Below are positions 4,113 through 41,995 of a stretch of DNA of 64,000 nucleotides, piece by piece; positions within the stretch are counted from its first letter, which is position 1; each line of letters opens with the position of its first letter. Source of the stretch: Malacoraja senta (Eukaryota); contig CM075989.1 of assembly GCA_038087875.1 (NCBI GenBank), positions 3,596,001 through 3,660,000 of the forward strand, read 5' to 3'. The notes below the pieces were generated by a model. That model saw only the letters and a list, made by a program, of their open reading frames with translations. It was not told the DNA's origin and did no database searches. Made by a program: the position numbers and the translations under genes.

Positions 4113-4643
4113 CTATAAAAATATAAGTTAGCCTTAAATATTTGGCTCTAATGCATTCAGTGTGTAAGGAGAAACAACATTTTGAAGCCAAGCCAGATAA
4201 AAAAATCAGAAAAATACAGACCAAATTAGCCTTGTCTTCTCTACCTGGTATCCATTTTGAAGTCAGGAGCCATTTTGTTTGATGGTGCAGTCTTGTAAGC
4301 ATAGATTCTGTGCCACATTAAAGGTAGTTCAATATTTAAAAATTCCCAACCAGAAACCAAGTAATTGTATCAAATTGAATCAATATTCCTTCAGTCAATA
4401 ATAAATATTATTTTAAATAATGCATTCATAGCAAATAAATCAAAGCAAAGCAAGTTCTGTCTCCTCTATGTGACTGTATTTCTTGTGTTTTACTGTTAGT
4501 CACATATGTTTCTTTCATTAAACGTAGCTTGGTTTCTCTCTTTGTCTTCTGTGAATATCCAACACTCTTTGATTGTCTCTGCAACGCCATTTTAAGGCTT
4601 TAGGTTCTTCTCTCATTCTCTCCCCTGCTTTTCTTTTAAACAT

Positions 4644-21400: not shown

Positions 21401-23222
21401 ACAATTTGGATTGAAATCCATTCAAAACCTTTGAATAACACTCTGTATAAACAGAGCTAAGGTAATTTGCTTCCATTCATCCCAGAAACAGATGTAATGT
21501 ACCCCAGATTTAAGTTGTGTCACATTTGATATGTGCATCTGAGAACCAGGCCCACCTACCTCCTTGGTACCTGGTGGATGTTTGACCATGTTCCCGCTTC
21601 GTTTGTAGGGGTACATCATTTTTAGGAAACTTGCCGATTGCTGGTGGCTTGATCAAGCCCACCGTCTTTGCCTCGTTATCCATGCCCTTGACACTCTTGG
21701 CGAGGTCCTCTCCGAAGAGTAGGTTTGCCGGCTGAATGTTGCTAGGCTGGAAAAATACTGCAATCTTGGAATTAATGATGGGCCGAATGGCACTTTCCCT
21801 GAGACAATTTATCTAAAAAATGGGTGCTACAAAGCAACCCTAGTACCTCTTGATGCATCTCCGACACATGCCCTCCATCCACCGTTCTCGCGAATGCCGT
21901 GATTCCTGAGTCAAGTAATTTTAGGATTCTCTGCAGCTTCATCTCCTGGGCACTGCACGCCCATGCCCGTCTGGCTCCATATCACCCGGTTCACTGCTGG
22001 CACCTTCAGCAACTCGCAGTTACCCCGGTCTCTTGGTGATTCCAGACTGACTGGACAGCGAATCGTACTGCCAGAGATGGGAACTCTGACAACGGCCATC
22101 TTCGCTTTCCCAGTGGCACTCCACACTCTGACGGGACAGCGAATCGTGCTGCCAGAGAATGGACCTCTGACAACGGCCGTTCTTTGCTAGTCAACAAAGT
22201 CTCCGTCAGAGTCGGGTCAGAACTGAGCTGACCCTCTGCAAGCGCCTTTTAAATGAGGGTGCTATCCAGCAGCCTCTATATCGTGGAGGCCAGCTCTTCT
22301 CCCAGTGGCACTCCATACTCTGACGGGACAGCGAATCGTGCTGCCAGAGAATAAACCTCTGACAACGGCCGTTCTTCGCTAAGTTCCAAGTCTCCGTCAG
22401 AGTCGGGGTCAGAACTTAGCTGACCCTCTGCACTCACCTCATGCATGAGGGTGCTTCAAGCAGCCCTCTACCAGGTGCTGCCAGCGTGGCCTTTCTGCAG
22501 CCTACCGCCCACACAACTCCTCCCCCCGGAGTGTGCGTTTCTGGAGCAACCTCTGGATGAGGTGCTCCATTTGGGAGAACCGTTTTAAAACGTCTCCAGC
22601 CCCGTACAGGCTCGTTGTGGCCCGACTCCGTTGAGTCTGAGGGCCTCCCAGACTTCCCCGTGCCTTACGCCCAACAGGCGTTGGCTTTGGTGCTTTTTAC
22701 CACTGAGTCTGAAGTCGCCCCTCTCCCGGTCGGCGACTGTGCAGGGGTACGAGGCAGCCGCTGACAGACCGCTTTCCCGCGGCTCTCCTATGCTTTACCT
22801 GTGGCTGTCCTCCCCCTGGTCGTCTTCACCATGGTGCCAGTAATAAAAAACACAGAGCACCACAAAAAAGGAACTTTCCCCTCCAGCTAAGTTTCTCACT
22901 TAGCTGGAGCTTTAAAACTATATAAGTACTTTAAAAGTACTTACTACAGGAGGAGCTCTGTCCTCCCCTGCTCGTCTTCACCATGGTGCTGCCTGTGACA
23001 AAACACAGAGCACAGCACCACAGTAAAGGAAACTGTTTTACTCCAGCTAAGTTTCTCACTTAGCTGGAGCTTTAAAACTCTTTAAAATTACTCTAAAAGT
23101 ACTTACCACGGGAGGAGCTCTGTCCTCCCGCTGTCCGTTCGCCAATGCGACCGACGTAATGACGCGCATGTGCCCTGACGGGTCTTCTTCACGTTGTCAC
23201 TAACGTGACTCCGAAGTAAAAT
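18438..23222 (-). mobile_element. DIRS1-type tyrosine-recombinase retrotransposon, copy A (family 1, full length, degenerate)
   Basis: Left end at 23222 (ATTTTACTTCGGAGTCACG...); ICR at 18667-18777; RT motifs YMATIDLKD and MAYLDDIL (about 21000); RNase H-like ALGWG; recombinase AWRKSTQKGY, YSTINTALSALS, STSAAATS...AGW. Confidence 0.93.
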
Positions 23223-24609
23223 ACACAATAAACTATATTATAAATACACAATAAACAAGTTATGCATTCTTCTACTCTTACATGGGTATGACCACACATA
23301 ACCCCCCCCCCCCCTTCCTTTCCAACCTCAGCCTCACGGACATTAGAGTACCTCTAGTTCCTAAAACCCATTTCCATCACTGGACAGCACCACTTACACT
23401 TGAAAATAAACAGGTAAATGGGGAGGTGGAGAGGCAGTGTATCGGGGAACAAACAGCCCAACAAACCAGACCGCAAATCCATTAGAGTTCCTTTAGCATC
23501 TTGCAAGCTGTACAAAACCGATTCCGTGATCATCACCATCCATTTCATGGGGTGATATAACCAACAACTTATGTAATAACATGCAAAATACATACTGCAC
23601 AATAACTCTCCCCCCCCTCCCCAAGAACAATAGCCAAATCTATAAGATAAGCCGCCCCCCTCAACCCGGTTTTACACTCGATCAACGGGTACATCGCGCT
23701 CCTTGATTAATTCCATCTCCACTGATAGTTTACTGGAAGTTTATACACAATCCCCGTCCAGAACAGGCGTTCTGAGATAATTGACTTGTGTTAAGAGATA
23801 TTTTCTCGACACTTACGTCCCCTCCTTACACACCCCAGATAGCTAGTAGTTACTTGTTGTTATATTCATACCAGGTTTGCGAGGGAAAGTTTGCCTTTGC
23901 AAATTTCAAAAACAAAAACATGGTAAACTCACTTGAAGATGTGAAGTTTAACTTCCCCATTGCTTTTGGTACCAGTCCATTGATTTGTATTAATTTTAAA
24001 CTCTCATCAGTGTGTGTATATAAAGTTGATCCCAGGCTCCTTGCCACCTTGCACAGTACCATTTTCAAATTTCACAATTCCGGACATAATTAACAGAGAA
24101 AATTAGTTTGTTACAATGAGCAGAAAATATGAAAATACAAACAGAAATTGGCTACTCAGCCCATCAAATCATTTAACGAGGATTGTAACTGAAGTAAACA
24201 AATCACTTTGCATTCCTACCTTCCATAATATATTTTTATCCCCTGCATACCTACTTTTGCATTGAAAGTATTCAAAGCCTTTGCTTCTCCTACCCTTTCG
24301 GGAAGAGAGCGAGGATACGTTACAAAACATCCTCCGCAGAAATCCTCTACACTGGCGCCACACATGGATGTGTTCTCAGCCCCTTACTATACTCCCTATT
24401 TACTCATGACCTTATCGCAAAATTTGGCTCCAACTCCAAGGACTATTTTGCCAATGACACCACTGTAGCTGGTTGGATTTTGAACAATGACGAATTGGAA
24501 TACAGGAATAAGATTGAGAGCTTGGTAGCATGGTATCAAGACAACAACCTCTCCCTTGTTATCAAGAGGTAGGAGCTAGTTATTGCCTTCAGGAAAAAAG
24601 GTTGGGTAC

Positions 24610-24813
24610 TGTAAATAGTCATTACACACGTGTGACATTATAATAGTCTTTTAATAAGTATACAGAGTTAAACAATACATGAGTAGTCACTGATTCCAGT
24701 CTGCTACTGTACTGCGCAGAAGGAGAAGCAGGCATTATTATAAATGATACTTAAGGCGGGGTTAGTAGTGGTGAGGTAGCTATGTGATTGGTTGCATGCC
24801 TAAACCATCTACA
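24610..24813 (-). repeat. 3' LTR of Gypsy copy 1
   Basis: Direct repeat of 26052-26255; adjacent to PPT CTTCTAAGGGGAAGGA. Confidence 0.95.
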
Positions 24814-24918
24814 TCCTTCCCCTTAGAAGATTAAACATGAACACTTGATTAAACATGGTGGATAACTATGGCAACGACTTAAACAAAATCACCATACCGA
24901 ACAGCTTCCTCTTCCGAA

Positions 24919-26022
24919 ATGGCTTCCTCTTGCCGAAAGCCTGCTCAGCTCGTCTTCGATTCGGACATCGCGGAGCGCTGGGCTACTTTCGAACTGGACT
25001 ACCGCCACTACATGACTATTGCTCATTGGAACGAGACCGATGATGTCGCTTCTTCTCAACCTTGCCGGCCTCGACGCCATGAGAAGAGCCAGGACCTTCA
25101 ATTATGCCCCAGCGGTCCTGGGTGCCAACAATCAGGTACTGGTACCCATGGAAACTGCGGAAGACCCGCATGTCCTGCTACGCAAGTTCGGGGAGATTTG
25201 TGACCTGCCCTCTAATCGTATTTTAGAAAGGGCGCGATTCTTTACTCGCAAGCAGTTGCCCGGTGAGCCTGTTGAGCGCTTCATCGCTGATTTACGTTAC
25301 CTAGCCCAGAGGTGCAGGTTCGAAGCTATGATAGACCAGCTAACTAGAGACATTTTGGTGACAGGGATGATCAATCAGAAACTGAGATCAGAGCTCCTCC
25401 GCAGACCCGATCTCACTTTAAATTAAGCCATGCATGCCTGCAGAATGGCTGAGGCCATTGACCCGCCAGGCAGTCAGCATGATTCGGACACTAAATCTAT
25501 CAACCTGACTGGGTTCAATAGACCGCGACCTCGATCTGATAACACTCAATTTGTGCCTCGGCCCGGCCCCGCATCTGGCGGTGAAACCCCCAAATGCCCG
25601 AACTGTAACTACATGCATCACAGGCAGTCGCCATGCCCTGCCTTCAGTAAAGCCTGCAACTATTGCAAGAAATTAAACCATTTCTCTGCTGCCTGTCATT
25701 CTCGTGGGAAGGTGCCACGAGCTTCCAGACCCAACCTAAACATGCTGATGCAAGCTGATAACATGTATGGTTCTCTGTCCTTGCTCGACGCTACCCACAC
25801 TGACGATCCAATTATTTCGCAAGGGGAGGCGAGTGTGCATTCACTCCTTCACGCACCTGGCCGATTACCTGATCCAACTGTTCTGATAACTGTCAACAAT
25901 TCCAGCTTTCACGCTAAGCTCGACACTGGGGCAAAAGTGAATGTAATGTCAATAAGCCTTAAGAAGATAAGGAATAATGAGCTAATGATTGCAGACCGTT
26001 CCACTCTGCACGCCTATGGAGG
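24919..26022 (+). pseudogene. Gypsy gag plus N-terminal aspartic protease (frameshifted, truncated), antisense to the LTRs
   Basis: ILERARFFTRKQLPGEPVERFIADLRYLAQRCRF; zinc knuckles CPNCNYMH and CNYCKKLNHFSAAC; protease KLDTGAKVNVM; ends at LHAYGG. Confidence 0.9.
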
Positions 26023-26051
26023 CGTGGGTTCGTATACCACTTCTGACACCA

Positions 26052-26255
26052 TGTAAATAGTCATTACACACGTGTGACATTATAATAGTCTTTTAATAAG
26101 TATACAGCGTTAAACAATACACGAGTAGTCACTGATTCCAGTCTGCTACTGTACTGCGCAGAAGGAGAAGCAGGCGTCATTATAAATGATACATAAGGCG
26201 GGGTTATTAGTGGTGAGGTAGCTATGTGATTGGTTGCATGCATAAACCATCTACA
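26052..26255 (-). repeat. 5' LTR of Gypsy copy 1
   Basis: Followed on the minus strand by PBS TGGTGTCAGAAGTGG. Confidence 0.95.
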
Positions 26256-26696
26256 GGTACAATCGCTGGTCAGCATCAATAGTGTCAAAGAGGAGATAAT
26301 CGAGACCTTCAGGTTTCTTGGCGAAAATATCACCAACAACTTATCTTGGAACAACCACATTGAAACTACCACCAAGAAAGCAACAATGCCTCTACTTCCT
26401 TAGAAGACTAAAGACATTTTCTGCATGTCTCGAACAAATCTTACCAACCATTAAAGTAGCATCTTCAACCGTGGTCACAACATCACAGCTTGGTTTGACA
26501 ACAGTTCTGCCCAAGACAGCTAGAAATTGCAGAGAGATGTGGATATAGCCAGTCCACCACACAAACCAGCCTTCCTCCCATTGATTCCAACTACACTTCC
26601 CGCTGCTTCGGAAACATCGGCAACTCAATCAAGGACCATTTTAACACCAGTCATTTCCTCATCTCCAGCCTCTTCATCGCACTTTCTCTGTAACTT

Positions 26697-26970
26697 TTTA
26701 GTTTAGTTTAGTTTGGATATGCAGCACAAAATCAGGACCTTCAGCCCACCGAGTCCTCGCTGACCAGCGATCCCCACACACTAACACTATCCTACACACA
26801 CTAGCGACAATTTTCAATTTTACCAAGCCAATTAACCTACAAACTTGTACATTTTTGGAGTGAGGGTGGAAACCGGAGCGACCCAGAGCAAACCCACACA
26901 AGCCACAGGATCGAATCCGGGTCTCTGGCGCTGTAAGGCTGGAACTCTACTGCTATGCCACCGTGCCGCC
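26697..26970 (-). mobile_element. HE1-like V-SINE
   Basis: tRNA head, V-domain and tail. Confidence 0.85.
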
Positions 26971-26988
26971 CAATTGTAACTCTAACAT

Positions 26989-29562
26989 TAGAAACATAGA
27001 AACATAGAAAATAGGTGCAGGAGGAGGCCATTCAGCCCTTCGAGCCAGCACCGCCATTCATTGTGATCATGGCTGATCGTTCCCTAACAATAACCCGTGC
27101 CTGCCTTCTCCCCATATCCCTTGACTCCACTAGCCCCTAGAGCTCTATCTAACTCTCTCTTAAATCCATCCATTGACTTGGCCTCCACTGCCCTCTGTGG
27201 CAGGGAATTCCATAAATTCACAACTCTCTGGGTGAAAACGTTTTTTTCTCACCTCAGTCTTAAATGACCTTCCTTTTATTCTAAGACTGTGGCCCCTGGT
27301 TCTGGACTTGCCCAACATTGGGAACATTTTTCCTGCATTTAGCTTGTCCTGTCCTTTTATAATTTTATATGTTTCTATAAGATCCCCCCTCATCCTTCTA
27401 AACTCCAGTGAATACAAGCCTAGTCTTTTCAATCTTTCCTCATATGACAGTCCCGCCATCCCAGGGATCAATCTCGTGAACCTACGCTGCACTGCATCAA
27501 TCACAAGGATGTCCTTCCTCAAATTAGGAGACCAAAACTGTACACAATACTGTACACAACCAGATGTGGTCTCACCAGAGCCCTATACAACTGCAGAAGA
27601 GCCTCTTTATTCCTGGACTGAAATCCTCTTGTTATGAAGGCCAACATTCCATTAGCTTTCTTCACTGCCTGATGTACCTGTAAGCCAACTTTCAGTGACC
27701 GGTGTACAAGGACGCCCAGGTCTCGCTGCACCTCCTCCCCCTTAACTAACCTACCCCATTGAGATAATAATCTGCTCCCTTGTTTTTGCCGCCAAAGTGG
27801 ATAACCTCACATTTATCTATATTATACTGCATCTGCCACGCATCTGCCCACTCACTCAACCTGTCCAGGTCACCCTGCAACCTCCTAACATCCTCTTCAC
27901 AGTTCACACTGCCACCCAGCTTTGTTTCATCCGCAAACTTGCTAGTGTTGCTCCTAATTCCCTCTTCCAAATCATTAATATATATAGTAAAGAGTTGCGG
28001 TCCCAACACCGAGCCTTGCGGCACTCCACTCGCCACTGCCTGCCATTCTGAAAGGACCCGTTCACTCCTACTCTTTGTTTCCAGTCTGCCAAGCAATTTT
28101 CTATCCATGTCAACACCCTACCCCCAATACCATGTGCTCTAATTTTAGTCACCAGTCTCCCGTGCGGGACCTTATCAAAGGCTTTCTGAAAGTCTAGATA
28201 CACTACATCCACTGGCTCCCCTTCATCCATTTTACTTGTCACATCCTCAAAAAATTCCAGAAGATTAGTCAAGCATGATTTCCCTTTCATAAATCCATGT
28301 TGACTTGGACTAATCCTTTTACTGCTGTCCAAATGCCCCATTATTACCTCTTTAATAATTGACTCCAGCATCTTTCCCACCACCGAAGTCAGGCTAACTG
28401 GTCTGTAATTCCCCGTTTTCTCTCTCGCTCCTTTCTTGAAAAGTGGGATAACATTAGCTATCCTCCAATCCACAGGAACTAATCCTGGTCTATTGAACAT
28501 TGGAAAATGATCACCAACGCGTCCACTATTTCTAGAGCCACCTCCCTGAGGACCCTGGGATGCAGACCATCAGGCCCAGGGGATTTATCATCCTTCAGTC
28601 CCATTAGCCTACCCAATACTATTTCTCGCATAATGAAAATTTATTTCAGTTCCTTTACCCCCTTAGATCCTCTGCCCTCCAGTACATCTGGGAGATTGTT
28701 TGTGTCTTCCTTAGTGAAGACAGATCCGAAGTACCTATTCAACTCTTCTGCCATTTCCTTGTTGCCCATAATTATTTCACCAGTGTCTGCCTTCAAGGGA
28801 CCCACATTTGACCTTGCTACTCTTTTTCCCTTAACATATCTAAAGAAGCTTTTACTGTCCTCCTTTATATTCCTGGCCAGCTTCCCTTCGTACTTCATCT
28901 TTTCAGCCCGTATTGCCCGTTTTGGTTGCTTCGGTTGTCCCATGAAAGTCTCCCAATCCTCTGGCTTCCGGCTACTCTTTGCTGTGTTATACATCTTTTC
29001 TTTTAGTTTTATTCTATCCCTAACTTCTCTTATCAGCCACGGTTGCCTCCTACTCCCCTTAGAATCTTTCTTCCTTTTTGGAATGAAATGATCCTGCGTC
29101 TTCCGGATTATACCCAGAAATTCCTGCCATTGCTGTTCCACCGTCATTCCTGCTAGGATCCCTTTCCAGTCTACCTTGGCCAGCTCCCCTCTCATGCCTT
29201 CATAGTCCCCTTTGTTCAACTGCATCACTGACACTTCCGATTTCACGTTCTCCTTCTCAAATTGCAGATTAAAACTAATCATATTATAGTCACTACCTCC
29301 AAGCGGTTCCTTTACCTCGAGTTCTCTTATCATATCTGGTTCATTGGACAACTAAATCCAGAATTGCCTTTTCTCTGGTCGTCTCCATTACAAGCTGCTC
29401 TAAGAATCAATCTCGGAGGCATTCTACAAACTCTCTTTCTTGGCGTCCTGAACCAACCTGATTTTCCCAGTCTACCTGCATATTGAAATCCCCCATCACC
29501 ACAGTGGCATTACCTTTGTTACATGCCAGTTTTAACTCCTGTTACATGCCAGTTTTAACTCC
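26989..29562 (-). mobile_element. CR1 LINE, 5'-truncated ORF2 (partial endonuclease, RT, 3' UTR)
   Basis: NYRPVSLTSVVGK, QHGFMKGKSCLTNL, YLDFQKAFDKVPH, SGVPQGSVLGP, KFADETK; (TTTCTATG)n tail; frameshifted. Confidence 0.95.
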
Positions 29563-32500
29563 ATTATAATGCTGTAAGACTGTATTCCGCACTGTATTCT
29601 AGTTTCCTCCCCGTGACCGCGTGGGTTTTTTCCGAGATCTTCGGTTTCCCACACAAAGATGTACAGGTATGTAGGTTAATTGGCTTGATTTAAATGTAAA
29701 TTGTGTGTGTGTAGGATAGTGTTAACGTGCGGTGATTGCTGGTCGGTACGGACTCGGTGGGTCGAAGGGCCTGTTTCTGCGCTGTATCTCTAAACTGCCT
29801 TCATGCTCCTTTTGGATAAAGGAATGAAGCATGACATTATAGGCAGCGTTGTAAATTCTATTCAAGTCTCTGCTTCATAATTTATCACTTAGGCAACACT
29901 GTGGTGCAGCTGGTAGAGTGGGATCTGCCTCACCGTGCCAGAGACCCAGATTCAATTCTGACCTCTGATGCAGCCAGTTACGCATTGTCCTGCCTTTCCG
30001 CAACAAAAGCTTTTCACTCTACCTCGATACATGTGCAGTGCAACTCAACTCAACCGTGGACGCTCTTGTGCACAACAGCTCACAAGCTGTTTCTTGCCTC
30101 ACCTTCTCCCCTTTGGTCAGAATGCCAGCGTTTATAAGGAGTAGGCTGATGAGGCCAAACCAATACCACTTATTTGGACCCAGCCGTTACCAATGATGCT
30201 GTCAGACAGTAATAGGGATCAGAGCGGCATCCGACAAAGGGGACGCTGTCACAGCCCAAAAACTACACTAACCTGTGATGGGAAAGCTTTCAGACACAAT
30301 AACCAGGGATAGAATCAGCAGTCACTTGGACAAATTAGACGAATGAGAGAAAGGCAGCATGGATTTGTTGAAGGCTAATCGTGTTAAACAAATGAAATAT
30401 GAGCTTTGATGATGGGGTATGAACAGTCGATGGGGTAAGTGCAGTGTATGAACTTTCAGAAGGCAGTTGATTAAGTGCTGCACAATGGGATCACAGAACA
30501 CCAACGTAAATCCCAATAGCTTTAGTTTTTTTTAAGTACACGGTGATTATAAAAATATAAGAGAGTCACGAATACATATTGCAGAAGTAAATAGTAAGAT
30601 TAAACGAGAACTTACCAGTTTGAAGTTTGATCTTTATTTTATGAGGCGTTACGATGAGCGATTACGTGAAGAAGGCCGTCAGCCCGCATGCGCGTCAATC
30701 TTCAAAGCAGCGGTATGAAATCACAGATAACAGTTGTTGAACTGAACGTAGTAAGATTAGAGAGGACTACCAGATGACCTTTATGATACGAGGGTTGGGA
30801 GCGGAGGGCACGTAATCGCTCATTCTAACTCCTCATAAAATAAAGATCAAACTTCAAACTGGTAGGTTCTCGTTTAATCTTAGTATTTTACTTCGGAGTC
30901 ACGTGAGTGACTACGTGAAGATTTTAAAGCTCTGTGATTTCATGCCGTGGAAACGAGTCCACACAAGCACAACTGCATCCGTTGACCACAGATAAGGGAA
31001 ACATTCATAATGCATACAGACATGACATAGATTTAAAAACATGCTGATGCCTATCCAATATCTTCTTAAATTATAATAATAGTAATCCCTCTCATCCGGG
31101 AGGAAACTATAAAATAGAACCTAAAATAGAGTTGGCAAATACCCCCGGTCTGGCTATGGGTTTTTATAAAATGTTTGGAAAGCTCGTTCATTAGACCATC
31201 CTGCAGTCGCTAGGATGTGGTCCAGCGGAACGTACATAACCCTTGCTGCTGATGTTCTAGCAGCCCTGGTGGAGTGAGATTAGAAAATATTAGATTCTAC
31301 TCCTGCATAAGCCCAAACCCCGTTTTAATCACCTGGAGATGGTCTGAACTGATACCTTCTTATGAGGTTTTTCGTAACTAACAAACATTGCTATTATCAG
31401 AGCCTCTAAGGCTCTAGGTGACCTTGACGTCTTGTTGTAAATGTATGGCCACACATAACCGAAGGTTCATGGGGCATGCCATGAGAACTAGTTTGAGACC
31501 TGACTCCCCTGGGCTGCTCTGCTTAACTAAATCATAAACATAAAATATTATATAATTTGCAGGTGTAACCATCCTTTCCAGTCGCAATTTATGTAGTGAC
31601 TTGACCCATTGCGCTGAGGATAACTACCTTATGAGAGACGGGCCAAAGATAAGGATGTAGCTGGAGCCCCCTGGTGAAGTAGTGTTGACAGAATGTCAAT
31701 ATACCATACTTCCGTGTACTTGGGCCTGGGAGAACTTGTGTTAAAAGATATCCTTTATAAACTGGATATCAGAGGGTGAGACCCGACACAGTGGGTCCCG
31801 CTCGCTGCAGCAAATATGATGAGAAGGCACGTTGGTCACAATTAATGGCATTATAACTTAATTTATTGTCAAGGACCCATTTGAAATGAACTTCAGGACG
31901 TCAGTTATCCGTGCCGTATTATATGTAACATATCATTTAAACAAAACGCTTACCATCTCCTGAAGAGGAAATGTACTGATTTTTTGGTGCTATCCCTGCA
32001 CTCTGCAGTGAGCACATACATGGATCGGTCTGACAATCTGAGCCGCAGGAGCAGTCTTCTCAGAGTCTGCAAGTCAATGAATTGATTTTATCATGCAGAG
32101 GCTGGTTTCCCAAGTCACAGGCTGAACCAGCAAAGTTTATGTTTAGAATAACCATATAAGGTTCTATTATTATTCCCAACATAAGCGGGAACCATGGCTG
32201 CATAGGCCAGTCAGACAGTACGAAAAAACCTGAAGCGGGATCTTGCTGAATTTATTGCAAGACCCGACTGATGAGGCAAAATAGAGAAAAGACATAAAAG
32301 AACATTCCTCCCCGAGTAGCGAGAATGTATCTCTCGCCACTGTGAACCACATATTTTTGCATCGAGCCATAATGTCATAAAATACTTTGTGATTCAACAT
32401 CCATACTGTGTTGTCATTGATTTTACGTGATGATACACCAGCGCCAAATGAGGTTAGGTAAATATGACAGGATACTTTGACTTGATTGCACCCATGTGAC

Positions 32501-34516
32501 TAACATATGCCACCACCACAGTGTATCAACTAGGAATTGAGCATGCAGATTATGCATATTCGCACAATAACCCTTTAACCCAAAGAATGCACCTAGTGTC
32601 TATAGGTAGTTGATACCAATAACTGAAGAATTTGTAACTCATGCAAATCCCATCTGCCTCCGTAACTAGAGATGACATTCGTAATTTTCCATCTTTGAGC
32701 ACTAGCATCAGTTTGTAATATAACTGAAGATTTAGTGACCAAAACCTACTGGAGCAATGCTGAATACTGTTCGTCCACCATTGTGACTTTGGTAGCTTCA
32801 GCTGGTAATAGCATAGGTCTGTTAACAATGACCTACATGGCACCTGAGAGGTTACTACTTTGCACGTTGTAAGTTCTGATAATGCAAAGGCCCAATTTGC
32901 ACAGCTGAAACACAGCTGCTATATTGCCAATTACACTTGATGAATAGAAGGCTGCTTCATAACAACAAGGTTGTTACAGGCTTCTATTGTTTCCAATCTC
33001 TTGCCCCAGGGCGGAGTCAGACAAATTAATAGTTAAAGGTAAATCCCAATAATCAATGACGCTAGTTGGTATCAACTTAAATTTAACTGGATGGATGAGG
33101 AACCTCAATTTTTCAATTATAGTGTGCGGCTGAAACAGTTGATTTTAGTAAAATACAGCGTTTAGAATATCATCCAGCTAAGCCATAACAAGTGTTTTTG
33201 AGCTTTTGGCAGTCCAAGCACCGGTTTAGTAATTTGGTAAATAACCTGGGAGCTGAAATTAGCCTATTTTGCAATGCTTTAACTGTTATCATTGCCCCAT
33301 CCAGATAAATTTCAAATGTCTCCGGTGATCCCAGAGAATGGGACCTGAATAGTATGCATCTTTGAGATCGATGCATGCCATAAAGATCCTATAGAAATCA
33401 GTTGTTTAGACAGTAACGAAGTTCCCTATTCTGAAAGTCTATATTGCACATGCCAGTTAAATCAAGGATGAACGGACCTCCTCCATCTTTCACAATGAAC
33501 AGGCCATGCCTGCCATAACTCCGTGCCTGCCTCGAACGAGCCTGTCACGAAAGAGAACTCTGGCCATAATTCTGAGCTTGTCTCGGAAGGCAATCCTGGA
33601 CATAATACTGAGCCTGCCTCGAAAGATAATTCTGGCCCCAATTCCAAGCCATGCTTGGAACCCTAGTATACTGTGCAGTATAAACTAATCACATGTTATC
33701 ATTTTAGTTTATAAACGGATCTGAATCTCATGTTATCATTGTCATTTGTACAAAAACCCAGGTGTAAATATTACCAACGTAAATGGTCCACATACCCCAT
33801 GTTTCGGAAGAACCAGACCCACCTACCTCCATGGCTACCGGTGGTCTTATGGTAAGCCCAAAGGCCCCTGATGCAGGTTCATTCCCATCCTTGATTGGAG
33901 AGTAGGACTGGTAGGGTGCGTGGATTCCATATTTTCCCTGAGACCGGCTTGGGCCTTGGCCTGAAAGACCTCTGCCCAGCTTTCAAGCTGTCACCAGCTT
34001 CAGTGAACTGCTAACTGCCAATGAAGGTGTGGGGTGTGTCGTCGCCGAAACGATGAAGCTTTGCTCGTCGTTGGTACCTTGATTAGTCCGACAGCTTTTG
34101 CTTCCTCATCCAGGTATACCTGTTGGATAAGTCTTACCTGAAGAGAAGATTCGGTGGCTGGTTTCATTTCCTGGATTTCATGCCCTTCCAATGTCACCCC
34201 TGACAGCGCTGTTCACTGCCGGCTCTTGTAGCGTGAGGGGAACTCTGGCCCCTTCCGGGTTTACTGCCAACGGCTGTGTAGATGGTTTATGCAAGCAACC
34301 AATCACATAGCTACCTCCCCACTACAAACCCCGCCTTAAGTATCATTTATAATAACGCCTGCTTCTCCTTCTGCGCAGTACAGTAGCAGACTGGAGTCCG
34401 TGACTACTCATGTGATGTTTAACTCTGTATCCTTATTAAAGACTATTATAATGCTACACGTGTGTAATGACTATTTACATGGTGTCAGAAGTGGGATTCG
34501 AACCCACGCCTCCATA

Positions 34517-34970
34517 GGCGTGCAGGGTGTAACGGTCTGCAATCATTAGCTCATTATTCCTTATCTTCTTAAAAAGGCTTATTGACATTACATTCACTTT
34601 TGCCCCAGTATCGAGCTTAGCGTGAAGGGACACTCGCCTCCCCTTGCGAGATAATTGGATCGTCAGCGTGGGCAGCGTCGAGCAAGGACGGAGAACTATA
34701 CATGTTATCAGCTTGCATCAGCATGTTTAGGTTAGGTCTGGAAGCTCGTGGCACATTCCCACGAGAACGACAGGCAGCAGAGAAATGGTTTAATTTCTTG
34801 CAATAGTTGCAGGCTTTACTGAAGGCAGGGCATGGCAACTGCCTGGAATGTATGTAGTTACAGTTCGGGCATTTGGGGGTTACACCGCCAGATGCGGGGC
34901 CGGGCCGAGGCACAAATTGAGCGTTATCAGATCGGGGTCGCGGTCTATTGAACCCAGTCAGGTTGATAGA
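34517..34970 (-). pseudogene. Inverted gag zinc-knuckle/protease fragment of Gypsy copy 2
   Basis: CPNCNYIH...CNYCKKLNHFSAAC on the minus strand; homologous to about 25493-26014 with an internal deletion. Confidence 0.9.
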
Positions 34971-34974
34971 TTTT

Positions 34975-36465
34975 ACACCCCTACACCCCTACGAACGGGA
35001 AGACCTTCTGGTGCTAGGCATTGACTTTGTCCCCACTAAGCAGCTTCAGTGCCTAGCCGAGCATACTGCCGCCGACCCCGCTCTGCAGCTACTTTCTCTA
35101 GTGATAAAAAGAGGTTGGCCGAGCAAGCGCGCCAGTGCGCCCGCAGAGACACAGCCTTTTTTCCTGGTTCGTGACGAGCTGGTCATCCAAGACGGCGTTA
35201 TTGTTAAGGGCTACAAGGTCGTGGTCCCCTCCTCCCTGTATGACAAGTACTATAGCGTGGCCCACAGCGGGCACCCGGGCGTTGATGCCACGATTGCCCA
35301 TGCACAGTGCCAATTCTACTTGCCTGGAATGGCTAAGTACATTCGGGACCGTGTCTCGTCTTGCTCTACCTGCAACAGCCTTGCGTCCCACCAGCAAAGG
35401 CAGTCCCTTTTGCAACAACCCGCGCCTGCCCTGGCCTGGACCTCGGTGGCCGCCGACATTTTCGAGTGGCGTGGTAAACACTACCTCGTCCTTGCTGACT
35501 CGTACTCGAACTGGTTCGAGGTTGACCTTCTGACCTCCCTCACGTCCGAGATGGTCATCCGTAAGCTGAGGAAACATTTTTCCACTTTCGGCTCGCCTGT
35601 CCGTCTGCAGACCGACAACGGCAGGCAGTTTACCAGCCACGAGTTCAAGAGCTTTGCCAACAAGTGGAACTTCCTCCACTTCACGAGCAGCCCTGAGTAC
35701 CCGCAGAGTAACGGGCTTGCTGAGCGGGCTGTCCGGAGTGCCAAACTACTAATGGAGCAAGCGCGCCTGGCGAATTCCGACTTTTACCTCGACCTCCTGA
35801 ACCTAAGGAACATTTCCAGGGACGCAACCCTAGGCTCAACTGCTCAGAGGCTGATGTCCAGAACAACATGACCGCCGATTCCGATTTCTCAACACAAGCT
35901 GCTGCCTCGAGTGCTGGAGCCTGCCTCTGTCCAGACGCGCATTCAGGCTAAGCATGACATCCAAAGACGGTCACATGATAGATCGTGCAAGCCTCTCAAG
36001 CCTCTGCTGCCTGGACAGGCCGTTCGTCTACATACTGCTAGCGGATATTCCCGTCTGGCCACCGTGGTTGGCATTGCCGATGCACCTCGTTCGTACCTTG
36101 TGGACTTTGAAGGGACTGTCTACCGCAGGAGTCGTCAGCACCTGCTTGCTGTACAGGAGCCGCTCCCGCCGGCAGCCGGACCTTATGCTCCACCGCTGCA
36201 GTTCCAGCCATCTGCTGCTGATCCCATTGCCGGCCCCTGCATGCCTCAGTCCCCTCGCGTGTTGTGTTCACCTCCGCGTGGGTCGCCCATTGCTAACCAT
36301 TTTTCTAGCCCTCCTGCACGTTTGTCCCCCTTGCCGCTTTCTGTTTCCCCTCCGGCGTCGTCGCCTCCGGGTCTGGGTCTTTCTGGTGAGGGGGGGGAAG
36401 GGTTGGTCCGTATGCGCTCGGGCCGTGTCAGCAAGCCGCCTGTTCGGTATGGTGATTTTGTTTAA
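34975..36465 (+). pseudogene. Gypsy integrase (HHCC plus DDE) with premature stop at 35869-35871
   Basis: AHSGHPG...CSTC; AADIFEW; LQTDNGRQF; SSPEYPQSNGLAERAV; in-frame C-terminal continuation ending RSGRVSKPPVRY. Confidence 0.93.
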
Positions 36466-37959
36466 GTCATTGCCATAGTTACCCACCATGTTTAATCTTC
36501 TAAGGGGAAGGATGTAGATGGTTTATGCATGCAACCAATCACATAGCTACCTCCCCACTACTAACCCCGCCTTAAGTATAATTTATAATAACGCCTGCTT
36601 CTCCTTCTGCGCAGTACAGTAGCAGACTGGAGTCCGTGGCAACTCATGTGATGTTTAACTCTGTATACTTATTAAAGACTATTATAATGCTACACGTGTG
36701 TAATGACTATTTACAGGCTGGAACCAACTCTTCCGGCAGCAACCCCTTCATTTGCGAGTATTCCCTTGAAGCCATATGCATGTGCTCCGGTATGTTCCAT
36801 GGACATACTTTCGAATTTGAAGTCAGTTACACACTGACCACTCGCACTCCCCTCCACAGAGAGGGAGATTCGTAGGCAGCCCTGAAAACAGGTGCTGCCG
36901 CAGGCCCCTGAGGATACCTGCGCTGATATGGCCCCTCCAACGGACCTATATCATGATTGAGCATCACATTTGTGGGATAAACGCCCGAGGGCGCTATCCA
37001 TGCTCCATCTGGGTTAAACGTCCTAGGACGTACCCAGGTATGTCGGAGGGGAAGCATCCTGGCCTGACTCGTCCGAGTCCAAAGGCCTGACCGACTTATT
37101 CTGGGATTTACTTCCTTTCTGGGTGAACCATAGCGGTCTGGGAGCCACTGACCGCACTGTCAGCGACTCGGGTGGCGAGACCGACTTACCCTTGGCCTTA
37201 CCCCCTTTTCTGGTGAACCACAGCGGTCTGGGAGCCGGTGACCACATTGTCAGCGACTTGGGTGGCGAACCCGATGGCCGCCGGCTACCCGCGCTTCCGC
37301 GGTCCGGACCGGGATCTCCCCACAGTCCACAACCGGTTTCCCCGCGGCCCGTCCGGACTTCGCCCCGAAATCATCCAGCAGGAAAAACTCTGTAAGAAGA
37401 GATTCCTGCAAGAAAAAACTGAACCTGGAAATAAGTTTAAAACTTACCTGCAGGTTTAAACTTATCGCTGGAAGGAGCAACGCGCCTGCCAGTCAGTCGT
37501 TGCGCAATGCGTTAGACGTAATGGCGCGCATGCGGGCTGACAGCCTTCCACACGTAGTCACTCACGTGACTCCGAAGTAAAATTTGTCATCCTTGCCTCG
37601 TCTGATTTAGAGTTGACCTCAGACCAATCTGCTACAATGTGGTTGATTTTTGACTGCCCTCTCTACTGCTTTGTGTTAAGCCCACTCCGCTATGTTGGAT
37701 ACCTCCAACACATAGACTTCTACAGGTCGCAAAGGTTCCTCACCATCACTGTTATCATTGGTAATAAAGCCAGGTTGAAAGTCCTGTGAGTGAGATAGCA
37801 ACCCGCACAGAATCACGGCTTTTCATTCATCTGCTCCTGAACTGAACGACACTCTGGGCACCAAATGCTCAGTGTTAAATCCTAGACTTAACAGACAAGC
37901 ATCACGACACTGTTAATATGATTGTGTAGCTGAATATTTTGTGACTGGCTGCAATATAG

Positions 37960-38700
37960 AACGGTACAACACAAGAACGAACCCTTTGGACCACAATATC
38001 TGGGCTGAATATGATGCCAAGAACAAATCTCATCCACCTGCGATTGATCCATATCCTTCCATTCAGTGCATATCCATTTGCCTATCCAATATCGTCTTAA
38101 ATGCCTCAATAGTATCTGCCTCACCCACTAACCCAGGCACTCACCAGCCTCTCTGTAAAAAAAGTTTCCTCCCACATCTTCTTTAAACCTTGCCCGTCTC
38201 ACTTTTAAAGCTATTCCTTCTCGTATTTGATTTTTCCATCCTGGGAAAAAGGTTCTAACTGTTTACCCGATCTATGCCTCTCATAATTCGATATACTTCT
38301 ATCAGGTCTGCCCTCAACCTACAACATTCTGGAGAAAACAATCCAAGTGTGTCCAACCTTTCCCTGTAGCCAATACCCCATAATCCAGTGGATTCTGGTG
38401 AAGATCTAGGACTGACATGAGGAAAAACATTCTCATCCAGAGAGATGTGAATCTGTGGAATTTTCTGCCTCAGAAGACAGTGGAAGCCAATTAATTGGAT
38501 GCATTCAAGAGTGAGTTGGATTTAACTCTTAGGGCTAAATGAATCAGGGGATATAGGGAGAAAGCAGGAACGGGGTACTGATTCTGGATGATCAGCCATG
38601 ATCATATTGAATGGCAGTGGTAGCTCGACTATTTTCTACCTTTTGAACCTCCTCTGCACCCCTTCCAAAGCCTCCACATCCTTCTTGTAATGGGTTTATC
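37960..38700. mobile_element. Nested CR1 3' fragments (minus-strand host, plus-strand insert at about 38405-38640)
   Basis: CR1 ORF2 C-terminus and 3' UTR similarity on both strands. Confidence 0.7.
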
Positions 38701-41419: not shown

Positions 41420-41995
41420 GTTGTATAGGGCTCTGGTGAGACCACATCTGGAGTATTGTGTTCAGTTTTGGTCTTCTAATTTGAGGAAGGACATTCTTGT
41501 GATTGAGGCAGTGCAGCGTAGTTCACGAGATTGATCCCTGGGATGGCGGGACTGTCATATGAGGAAAGATTGAAAAGACTAGGTTTGTATTCACTGGAGT
41601 TTAGAAGGATGAGGGGGTATCTTATAGAAACATATAAAATTATATAAGGACTGGACAAGCTAGATGCAGGAAAAATGTTCCCAATGTTGGGTGAGTCCAG
41701 AACCAGGGGTCACAGTCTTAGAATAAAGGGGAGGTAATTTAAGACTGAGGTGAGAAAAAACGTTTTCACCCAGAGTTGTGAATTTATGGAATTCCCTGCC
41801 ACAGAGGGCAGTGGAGGCCAAATCACTAGATGGATTTAAGAGAGAGTTAGATAGAGCTCTGGGGGCTAGTGGAATCAAGGGATATGGGGAGATTGATAGG
41901 GGACGATCAGCCATGATCACAATGAATGGCGGTGCTGGCTCGAAGGGCCGAATGGCCTCGTCCTGCACCTATTTTCTAAGTTTCTGTTTCTATGT
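41420..41995 (+). mobile_element. CR1 3' fragment nested in an older Rex1-type 3' remnant (about 41160-42170)
   Basis: Very similar to the reverse complement of 26989-27590; NLWNSLPQRAVEA. Confidence 0.88.

Follow-up and report, generated by a model that had tools for sequence, protein, structure and literature searches.

Do Ty3/Gypsy retrotransposon copies with an inverted gag-protease segment belong to a defective lineage that propagates in rearranged form, or does the same rearrangement arise anew in each of them? The question is raised by two such copies in a 64,000-nucleotide (nt) stretch of the Malacoraja senta genome (assembly GCA_038087875.1, contig CM075989.1, positions 3,596,001 to 3,660,000), referred to below as the window. 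The original prediction left room for both routes, a rearranged genome mobilized in trans over several cycles or a switch that recurs, and it is the recurring switch that the present analysis supports. Each copy very probably arose on its own, as the dead end of a single round of reverse transcription that went wrong, in which the long terminal repeat (LTR) and a 35-nt copy of the tRNA-Leu primer became joined to inverted gag-protease DNA at an 8-nt match.

The inversion of gag-protease in both copies is confirmed by coordinates, strands, and perfect 5-bp target-site duplications (TSDs). In copy 1 (24610-26255), the polarity of the LTRs, primer-binding site (PBS), and polypurine tract (PPT) is that of the minus strand, and gag-protease reads on the plus strand from an ATG at 24919. 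In copy 2 (34277-36715), the polarity is plus, with protease-gag on the minus strand (34507-34973) and the integrase on the plus strand. The features are as follows; ruler positions are those of the normal family copy L129 (4,674 nt), which serves as the coordinate ruler and has no other role.

24605-24609, no strand: copy 1, left TSD, GGTAC
24610-24813, minus: copy 1, 3' LTR
24814-24904, minus: copy 1, PPT plus a short leftover of the sense 3' region (ruler 4381-4471)
24905-24917, no strand: copy 1, distal joint, a short templated repeat of just-copied DNA
24918-26024, plus: copy 1, inverted gag-protease, subfamily B (ruler 283-1397)
26017-26051, minus: copy 1, 10-nt PBS lengthened into a 35-nt tRNA-Leu copy, last 8 nt common with protease
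26052-26255, minus: copy 1, 5' LTR
26256-26260, no strand: copy 1, right TSD, GGTAC
34272-34276, no strand: copy 2, left TSD, GGCTG
34277-34479, plus: copy 2, 5' LTR
34480-34514, plus: copy 2, 10-nt PBS lengthened into a 35-nt tRNA-Leu copy, last 8 nt common with protease
34507-34973, minus: copy 2, inverted protease and 3' gag, subfamily A (ruler 1397-866)
34974-34979, no strand: copy 2, distal joint with a short duplicated filler
34980-36465, plus: copy 2, sense-oriented integrase region with a stop codon at 35869-35871
36495-36512, plus: copy 2, PPT
36513-36715, plus: copy 2, 3' LTR
36716-36720, no strand: copy 2, right TSD, GGCTG

The copy 1 inversion runs from ruler position ~1397-1400 back to 283, 1 nt before the gag ATG, and rejoins the sense sequence at 4381, near the PPT, just as had been predicted. 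That of copy 2 begins at the same protease site, extends to 866 with a 64-nt internal deletion near window position 34624, and rejoins at 2929, upstream of the sense-oriented integrase, which also agrees with the prediction. The LTR pairs are 96.5% identical in copy 1 and 97.0% in copy 2. Copy 1 is of subfamily B, and copy 2 of subfamily A, in the LTR, the inverted DNA, and pol alike. The inverted gag-protease of copy 1 is disrupted by stop codons and frameshifts; the integrase of copy 2 is recognized by the Pfam domains rve (E = 4e-11) and Integrase_H2C2 (E = 3e-11). An origin of the two copies by segmental duplication is ruled out by their different TSDs, flanks, and subfamilies. Copy 1 is inserted within a decayed reverse transcriptase (RT) fragment resembling those of long interspersed nuclear elements (LINEs), at window positions 24198-24609 and 26256-26550.

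Assignment of the family to Ty3/Gypsy is based on a domain search of L129, in which pol has the order protease, RT, RNase H, integrase (aspartyl protease, RVT_1, RT_RNaseH, and rve, the protease with an E value of 5e-4, under the curated cutoff), and on the TG..CA LTRs, PBS, PPT, and short TSD. The family may be of the Mag clade, to judge from its Gag motif and its PBS for tRNA-Leu. A Pfam search of the gag pieces in the window returned no match. The family LTR is 203 nt long, a length compatible with Mag A/C (213/174), and its terminal motifs are unlike those in Table 3 of PMC3601003. In normal copies, the PBS is 10 nt long and is followed by the element's own leader, an arrangement that would be consistent with the strong-stop scheme of Ty1/Ty3. 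The 3' LTRs of L109, L111, L113, L121, L128, and L130 are cut off at U3, with exact or singly mismatched TSDs in the four copies checked; they resemble the asymmetric LTRs of HIV-1 proviruses described in PMC9278108.

The PBS-side junction that the prediction regarded as shared is indeed the same in both copies, but its nature had been overlooked: the 25 nt that follow the 10-nt PBS are tRNA-Leu sequence. These extra bases match the genome's own Leu-CAG/CAA genes (10 full genes among 14 hits to the pattern), and the identification rests on these genes, as an Rfam search with the 35-nt piece gave no tRNA call and only a T-loop match to tmRNA. The 4,674-nt ruler contains a single match to the terminal 8 nt of the tRNA copy, antisense in the protease at 1397, and none in sense; with a Leu-CAG-type loop, the match lengthens to 11/12 nt. 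The copies differ at tRNA position 58, which is correct in copy 2 and carries a wrong base in copy 1 (window position 26033). The family was surveyed by a pattern search for the LTR end and PBS, which by design misses about a quarter of the sites. Its 60 rows, sorted by hand, comprise 35 normal 10-nt PBSs, 24 extended by tRNA-Leu, and 1 ambiguous case. The protease junction is present in 12 of the 24 extended rows, and one further locus outside the census brings the total to 12 loci, with 13 junctions, spread over 7 contigs. Mis-assembly of the window is unlikely because the junction is found again at 10 more loci, on other contigs.

If the tRNA sequence sets the start of the inversion, then identical junctions in different copies are no proof of common descent. 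The distal joints are all different: at the 11 loci where the second end could be placed, the antisense stretches end at ruler positions 283, 440, 561, 597, 705, 866, 899, 997, 1070, 1135, and 1365, with short microhomologies or short templated fillers at the joints, and L107 stops without a second end. Among the 9 other loci with two ends, 7 TSDs are exact and distinct and 2 have 1-2 mismatches. No rearranged structure recurs at several insertion sites. Four pairs of copies with identical junctions and matching interiors (L044/45, L222/223, L224/225, and L226/227) share their flanks and were rejected as evidence of retrotransposition, being segmental duplicates or haplotigs.

The inverted segments themselves give the same picture. 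A tree was built from 44 gag-protease segments (10 from junction copies, 2 from other inversions, 32 normal), leaving out L107 and L115 as too short, L025 and L028 as the same loci as L135 and L130, and L105 for want of a usable segment. The junction copies do not form a clade: label changes number 9, against a shuffled mean of 9.2, and a single clade is rejected by the approximately unbiased (AU) test (p = 1.7e-6). The nearest neighbor is a normal copy for 9 of the 10 junction copies, and a variant common to two junction copies yet absent from normal ones occurs in only 2 of 833 columns. The LTR pairs of junction copies (95.5-99% identical, versus 97-99% in normal copies) are no younger. Repeated mobilization in trans of one rearranged genome finds no support in these data, nor does the proposed propagating lineage, since copies 1 and 2 differ in subfamily and no distal joint is common among the 11 loci. 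The subfamily of the inverted segment should mark its origin, as homologous RT switching to helper sense RNA presumably cannot refresh inverted DNA. L103 is mixed: its LTR is of type A and its inverted DNA of type B, as if two genomes packaged together had both contributed to the capture.

A mechanism compatible with these structures would start with the first plus-strand strong-stop DNA, which would copy the attached primer past 1-methyladenosine 58 (m1A58), often stalling after 34-35 nt, with the cytosine of the variable loop (m3C47d in Leu-CAG) as the next base. The tRNA-extended 3' end would be unable to pair with the short PBS and could instead anneal to an intact sense template in the protease, most likely genomic RNA. 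Extended backwards through gag, it would yield antisense DNA, which would leave at a random point and join the unfinished minus strand via microhomology or through a short filler copied from a template; as both LTR ends are intact, integration could then proceed normally. Landing of the tRNA-extended strand on minus-strand DNA would result in a deletion instead, and landing on sense RNA in antisense cDNA. As the sense leader and 5' gag are missing from the products, these are probably not packaged again.

Copying of the primer can be followed throughout the genome. An LTR end joined to 28 nt of tRNA copy with no more than 2 mismatches occurs at 654 places, next to LTRs of many families, and the reversed control has 0 matches. 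When five positions are freed, the pattern finds 294 sites, 96 of which carry a wrong base at position 58. A hand count of the first 100 rows gives 36/100 errors at position 58 versus 3/400 at positions 54, 55, 59, and 60 (Fisher p = 1e-24). In a sample of 90 captures, 66 of them picked for length, the most common end is at 34-35 nt (26/90), immediately before the variable-loop C. Among 21 rows that extend beyond this C, 12 are wrong at that base, and the 3 independent Leu-CAG captures are all among these 12, whereas the base is C in each of the 10 genes. A zebrafish tRNA sequencing study (bioRxiv 10.1101/2024.01.30.575011) gives m1A58, m1G37, and m3C47d in Leu-CAG and does not list m3C47d for Leu-CAA. 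The captures in L036 and L182 run across the intron site of Leu-CAA without an intron, and that in L182 (G000:C4936, near 178260) is a whole spliced tRNA-Leu-CAA with its CCA joined to the LTR end. Given the position 58 errors, the intron-less captures, and the CCA end, the tRNA itself is, to judge from these sequences, the direct template, many times over.

L182 has integrase-like sequence on the other side of the tRNA, and ARAGORN labels the piece a tRNA gene. L036 and L044 cross the anticodon loop, with a mismatch at position 37 in both and at position 34 in L036; in the zebrafish data, position 37 is an m1G site and C34 is modified.

Inversions dominate in the focal family, where 16 of the 24 captures are antisense (12 of them at the protease hot spot) and 7 continue in sense. 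Of 66 loci sampled across the whole genome, 43 have sense captures, 7 have antisense ones (2 of them from the focal family), and 16 could not be oriented; the antisense start of L144 was confirmed as L220. Four further family inversions (L116, L118, L123, and L124) use other switch sites. Three more recurrent junctions (L216/L217, L218/L219, and L220/L221) lie in the integrase, RNase H, and gag start of related families. All are inversions, with different flanks and 80-88% identical backgrounds; two of the pairs differ at position 58, and the capture that precedes the integrase junction stops near tRNA position 37. The sense sequence restarts downstream of the switch in all 13 of the 13 family inversions. 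In L108 and L219, the return to the sense strand lies 3 and about 18 nt away from the switch site, respectively, as a single shared RNA template predicts. The inverted segment of L108 is split by a later 1.6-kb insertion with an A-rich end.

In a second family (rows including L190, L193, L199, L200, L204, L206, L210, L213, and L214), a 9-nt PBS is followed ~13 nt on by a sense leader box that matches the T-stem/variable arm of the tRNA, possibly forming a bipartite PBS; the PBS is extended in 5 of its 14 PBS-bearing rows. The box looks interrupted in the focal family, which might be a reason why the antisense protease site dominates there.

Several points count against independent origins by mis-priming. 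The well-supported (starred) branches of the tree force only 2 origins, and the bootstrap is not fully settled; the 8 junction copies of subfamily B in the tree are not separated from one another, so that a small B-subfamily lineage would be compatible with the tree taken alone. A wrong base at position 58 is found in only 1 of the 13 hot-spot junctions, versus 33% genome-wide (binomial p = 0.043). Shared ancestry could explain this scarcity, but position 58 is also correct in every other capture of the family that extends beyond it (L114, L115, L118, L119, L121, and L124). Deletion-type captures also mostly restart 3', so that downstream restarts discriminate weakly, and L216 has short sense pieces upstream of the switch, which calls for a second template. 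The modification positions are transferred from zebrafish rather than taken from this host, and gene variants, or tRNA genes outside the set, may account for part of the variable-loop variation, notably in CAA. An RNA template would also leave the same sequence as plus-strand DNA, and RT the same distal joint as host repair.

The unseparated copies of subfamily B would fit a history in which one or two ancestral inversions founded non-autonomous lineages, mobilized in trans and later deleted differently. The proximal junction, identical in 13 of 13 cases, also fits such a history, as does the correct base at position 58 in 12 of the 13, and a full-length tRNA match would make a good PBS. Still, this history is improbable in view of the rejected single clade, the absence of a common distal joint, the normal nearest neighbors, the ages of the LTR pairs, and the shared flanks of all four pairs with matching interiors. 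A better case can be made for a variant in which the read-through and mis-priming are the same but the two halves are integrated as separate DNAs in one integrase complex, with host end-joining in the middle. L103 (G000:C1:10624500-10629000) and L116 (G000:C5:66645200-66648300) are integrated elements that have two head-to-head LTRs, with U3 at both ends, and perfect 5-bp TSDs. This arrangement speaks for end-joining, as do the mixed subfamilies of L103 and the templated fillers and tandem slips at the joints of copy 1, copy 2, and L110. Such fillers and slips also fit joining of the polymerase theta type. We nevertheless regard this variant as possible but rather unlikely, as template switching by RT needs no additional step to give joints with microhomology, and the rejoining points of L108 and L219 are right beside the switch site. 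L103 carries the protease junction at both of its ends, and an inverted LTR is also seen in L048, L167, and L171.

Faulty reverse transcription, whichever way it is completed, is preferable to inversion in genomic DNA after insertion, by repair or recombination, and to assembly errors. The evidence is assembly sequence, but events after insertion could not supply an intron-less, CCA-ended tRNA with errors focused at position 58, and a base-exact junction at 12 loci on 7 contigs makes this whole class of explanations extremely improbable. It is also improbable that the inverted copies have been retained because LTR-driven antisense RNA silences the family. The geometry, with an LTR facing 0.03-1.1 kb of antisense gag-protease, would permit the antisense LTR transcript that had been predicted, but microhomology accounts for the excess of inversions without selection, captures in other families are mostly sense deletions (43 of 50 classifiable), and the inverted copies decay like their neighbors.

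Origin by mis-priming from a tRNA-extended strand has partial parallels in three known systems. In HIV-1 aberrant (delayed) second-strand transfer (Hardy et al. 2025, PMC12657518), RT passes m1A58 into the tRNA primer, and a tRNA insert defines the junction; tRNA sequence past the PBS likewise lies at the junctions described here. The HIV-1 proviruses have 7-54-nt tRNA inserts at deletion junctions, with a changed base at position 58 in 5 of 44; the set, 1 own sequence and 43 from GenBank, is somatic. In contrast to the family studied here, the HIV-1 strand lands on minus-strand DNA, which produces a deletion, and the main text of that paper contains no match to "inver"; both window copies continue antisense. 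Captures here affect 24 of 60 family rows, 16 of the 24 are inversions, and they sit in a genome assembly. Ty1 and Ty3 also have a short PBS and a first plus-strand strong-stop DNA with tRNA-copied bases, but synthesis stops after 12 nt, and the product is displaced as a dead end in particles; normal progeny do not inherit primer sequence (PMC5371799). Here, the copied part can be as short as 12 nt or take in the whole tRNA, and it is integrated. In L1 twin priming (PMC2837659), antisense cDNA is primed by a second 3' end that pairs with an internal site of the RNA, resulting in an inversion with an internal deletion between TSDs. The same combination, with microhomology at the priming site, is seen here. 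In L1, it is the nicked target strand that acts as the second primer, whereas the inverted piece here abuts the tRNA copy inside the LTR and not the TSD, which points to the element's own tRNA-extended plus strand as the primer. With such a primer, the switch site is set by the tRNA sequence and recurs base-exactly.

No report was found of tRNA-primed inversion, a recurrent hot spot, or a genome-scale modification signature in LTR retrotransposons, in a search that covered older and subscription literature incompletely. The literature on strand-transfer errors of retroviral vectors may hold a precedent. Primer read-through with deletion in HIV-1 and twin priming in L1 are already published, and the inversion form is a variant of such RT error. 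Non-autonomous LTR elements of the large retrotransposon derivative (LARD) and terminal-repeat retrotransposon in miniature (TRIM) types keep intact LTRs, PBS, and PPT and have lost their coding sequence. Unlike in those, there is no sign of amplification here, neither a shared distal joint nor a clade.

What was suspected to be a satellite lineage becomes a record of plus-strand transfer in a short-PBS Gypsy family, successes and failures alike, a step studied mainly in yeast; about 40% of the family's PBS-bearing ends are such failures. On balance, it seems likely that short-PBS Gypsy families in this genome often integrate tRNA-extended strong-stop DNA. The outcome would be a counterpart of twin priming in LTR elements, with inversion hot spots programmed by tRNA. 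Hundreds of tRNA "reads", archived in the genome as fossils, would then record germline m1A58, m3C47d, and m1G37, together with the RT error profile of each family, as they were when the copies inserted. As the captured pieces hold RT errors at modified bases, past germline tRNA modification would become testable from genome sequence. Recurrence of the junction is relevant to the annotation of non-autonomous families and to calling of PBS length, and the recurrent antisense copies behind an LTR are a candidate source of silencing RNA.

The window contains several other repeats. A LINE fragment, presumably CR1/L2-like, occupies positions 27000-29350 on the minus strand, with related inverted copies at 38423-38628 and 41452-41985. 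A pair of 80-nt inverted repeats, 140 nt apart, at 30589-30888 is a possible miniature inverted-repeat transposable element (MITE), and clusters of short direct repeats are located at 22027-22455 and 37084-37263.

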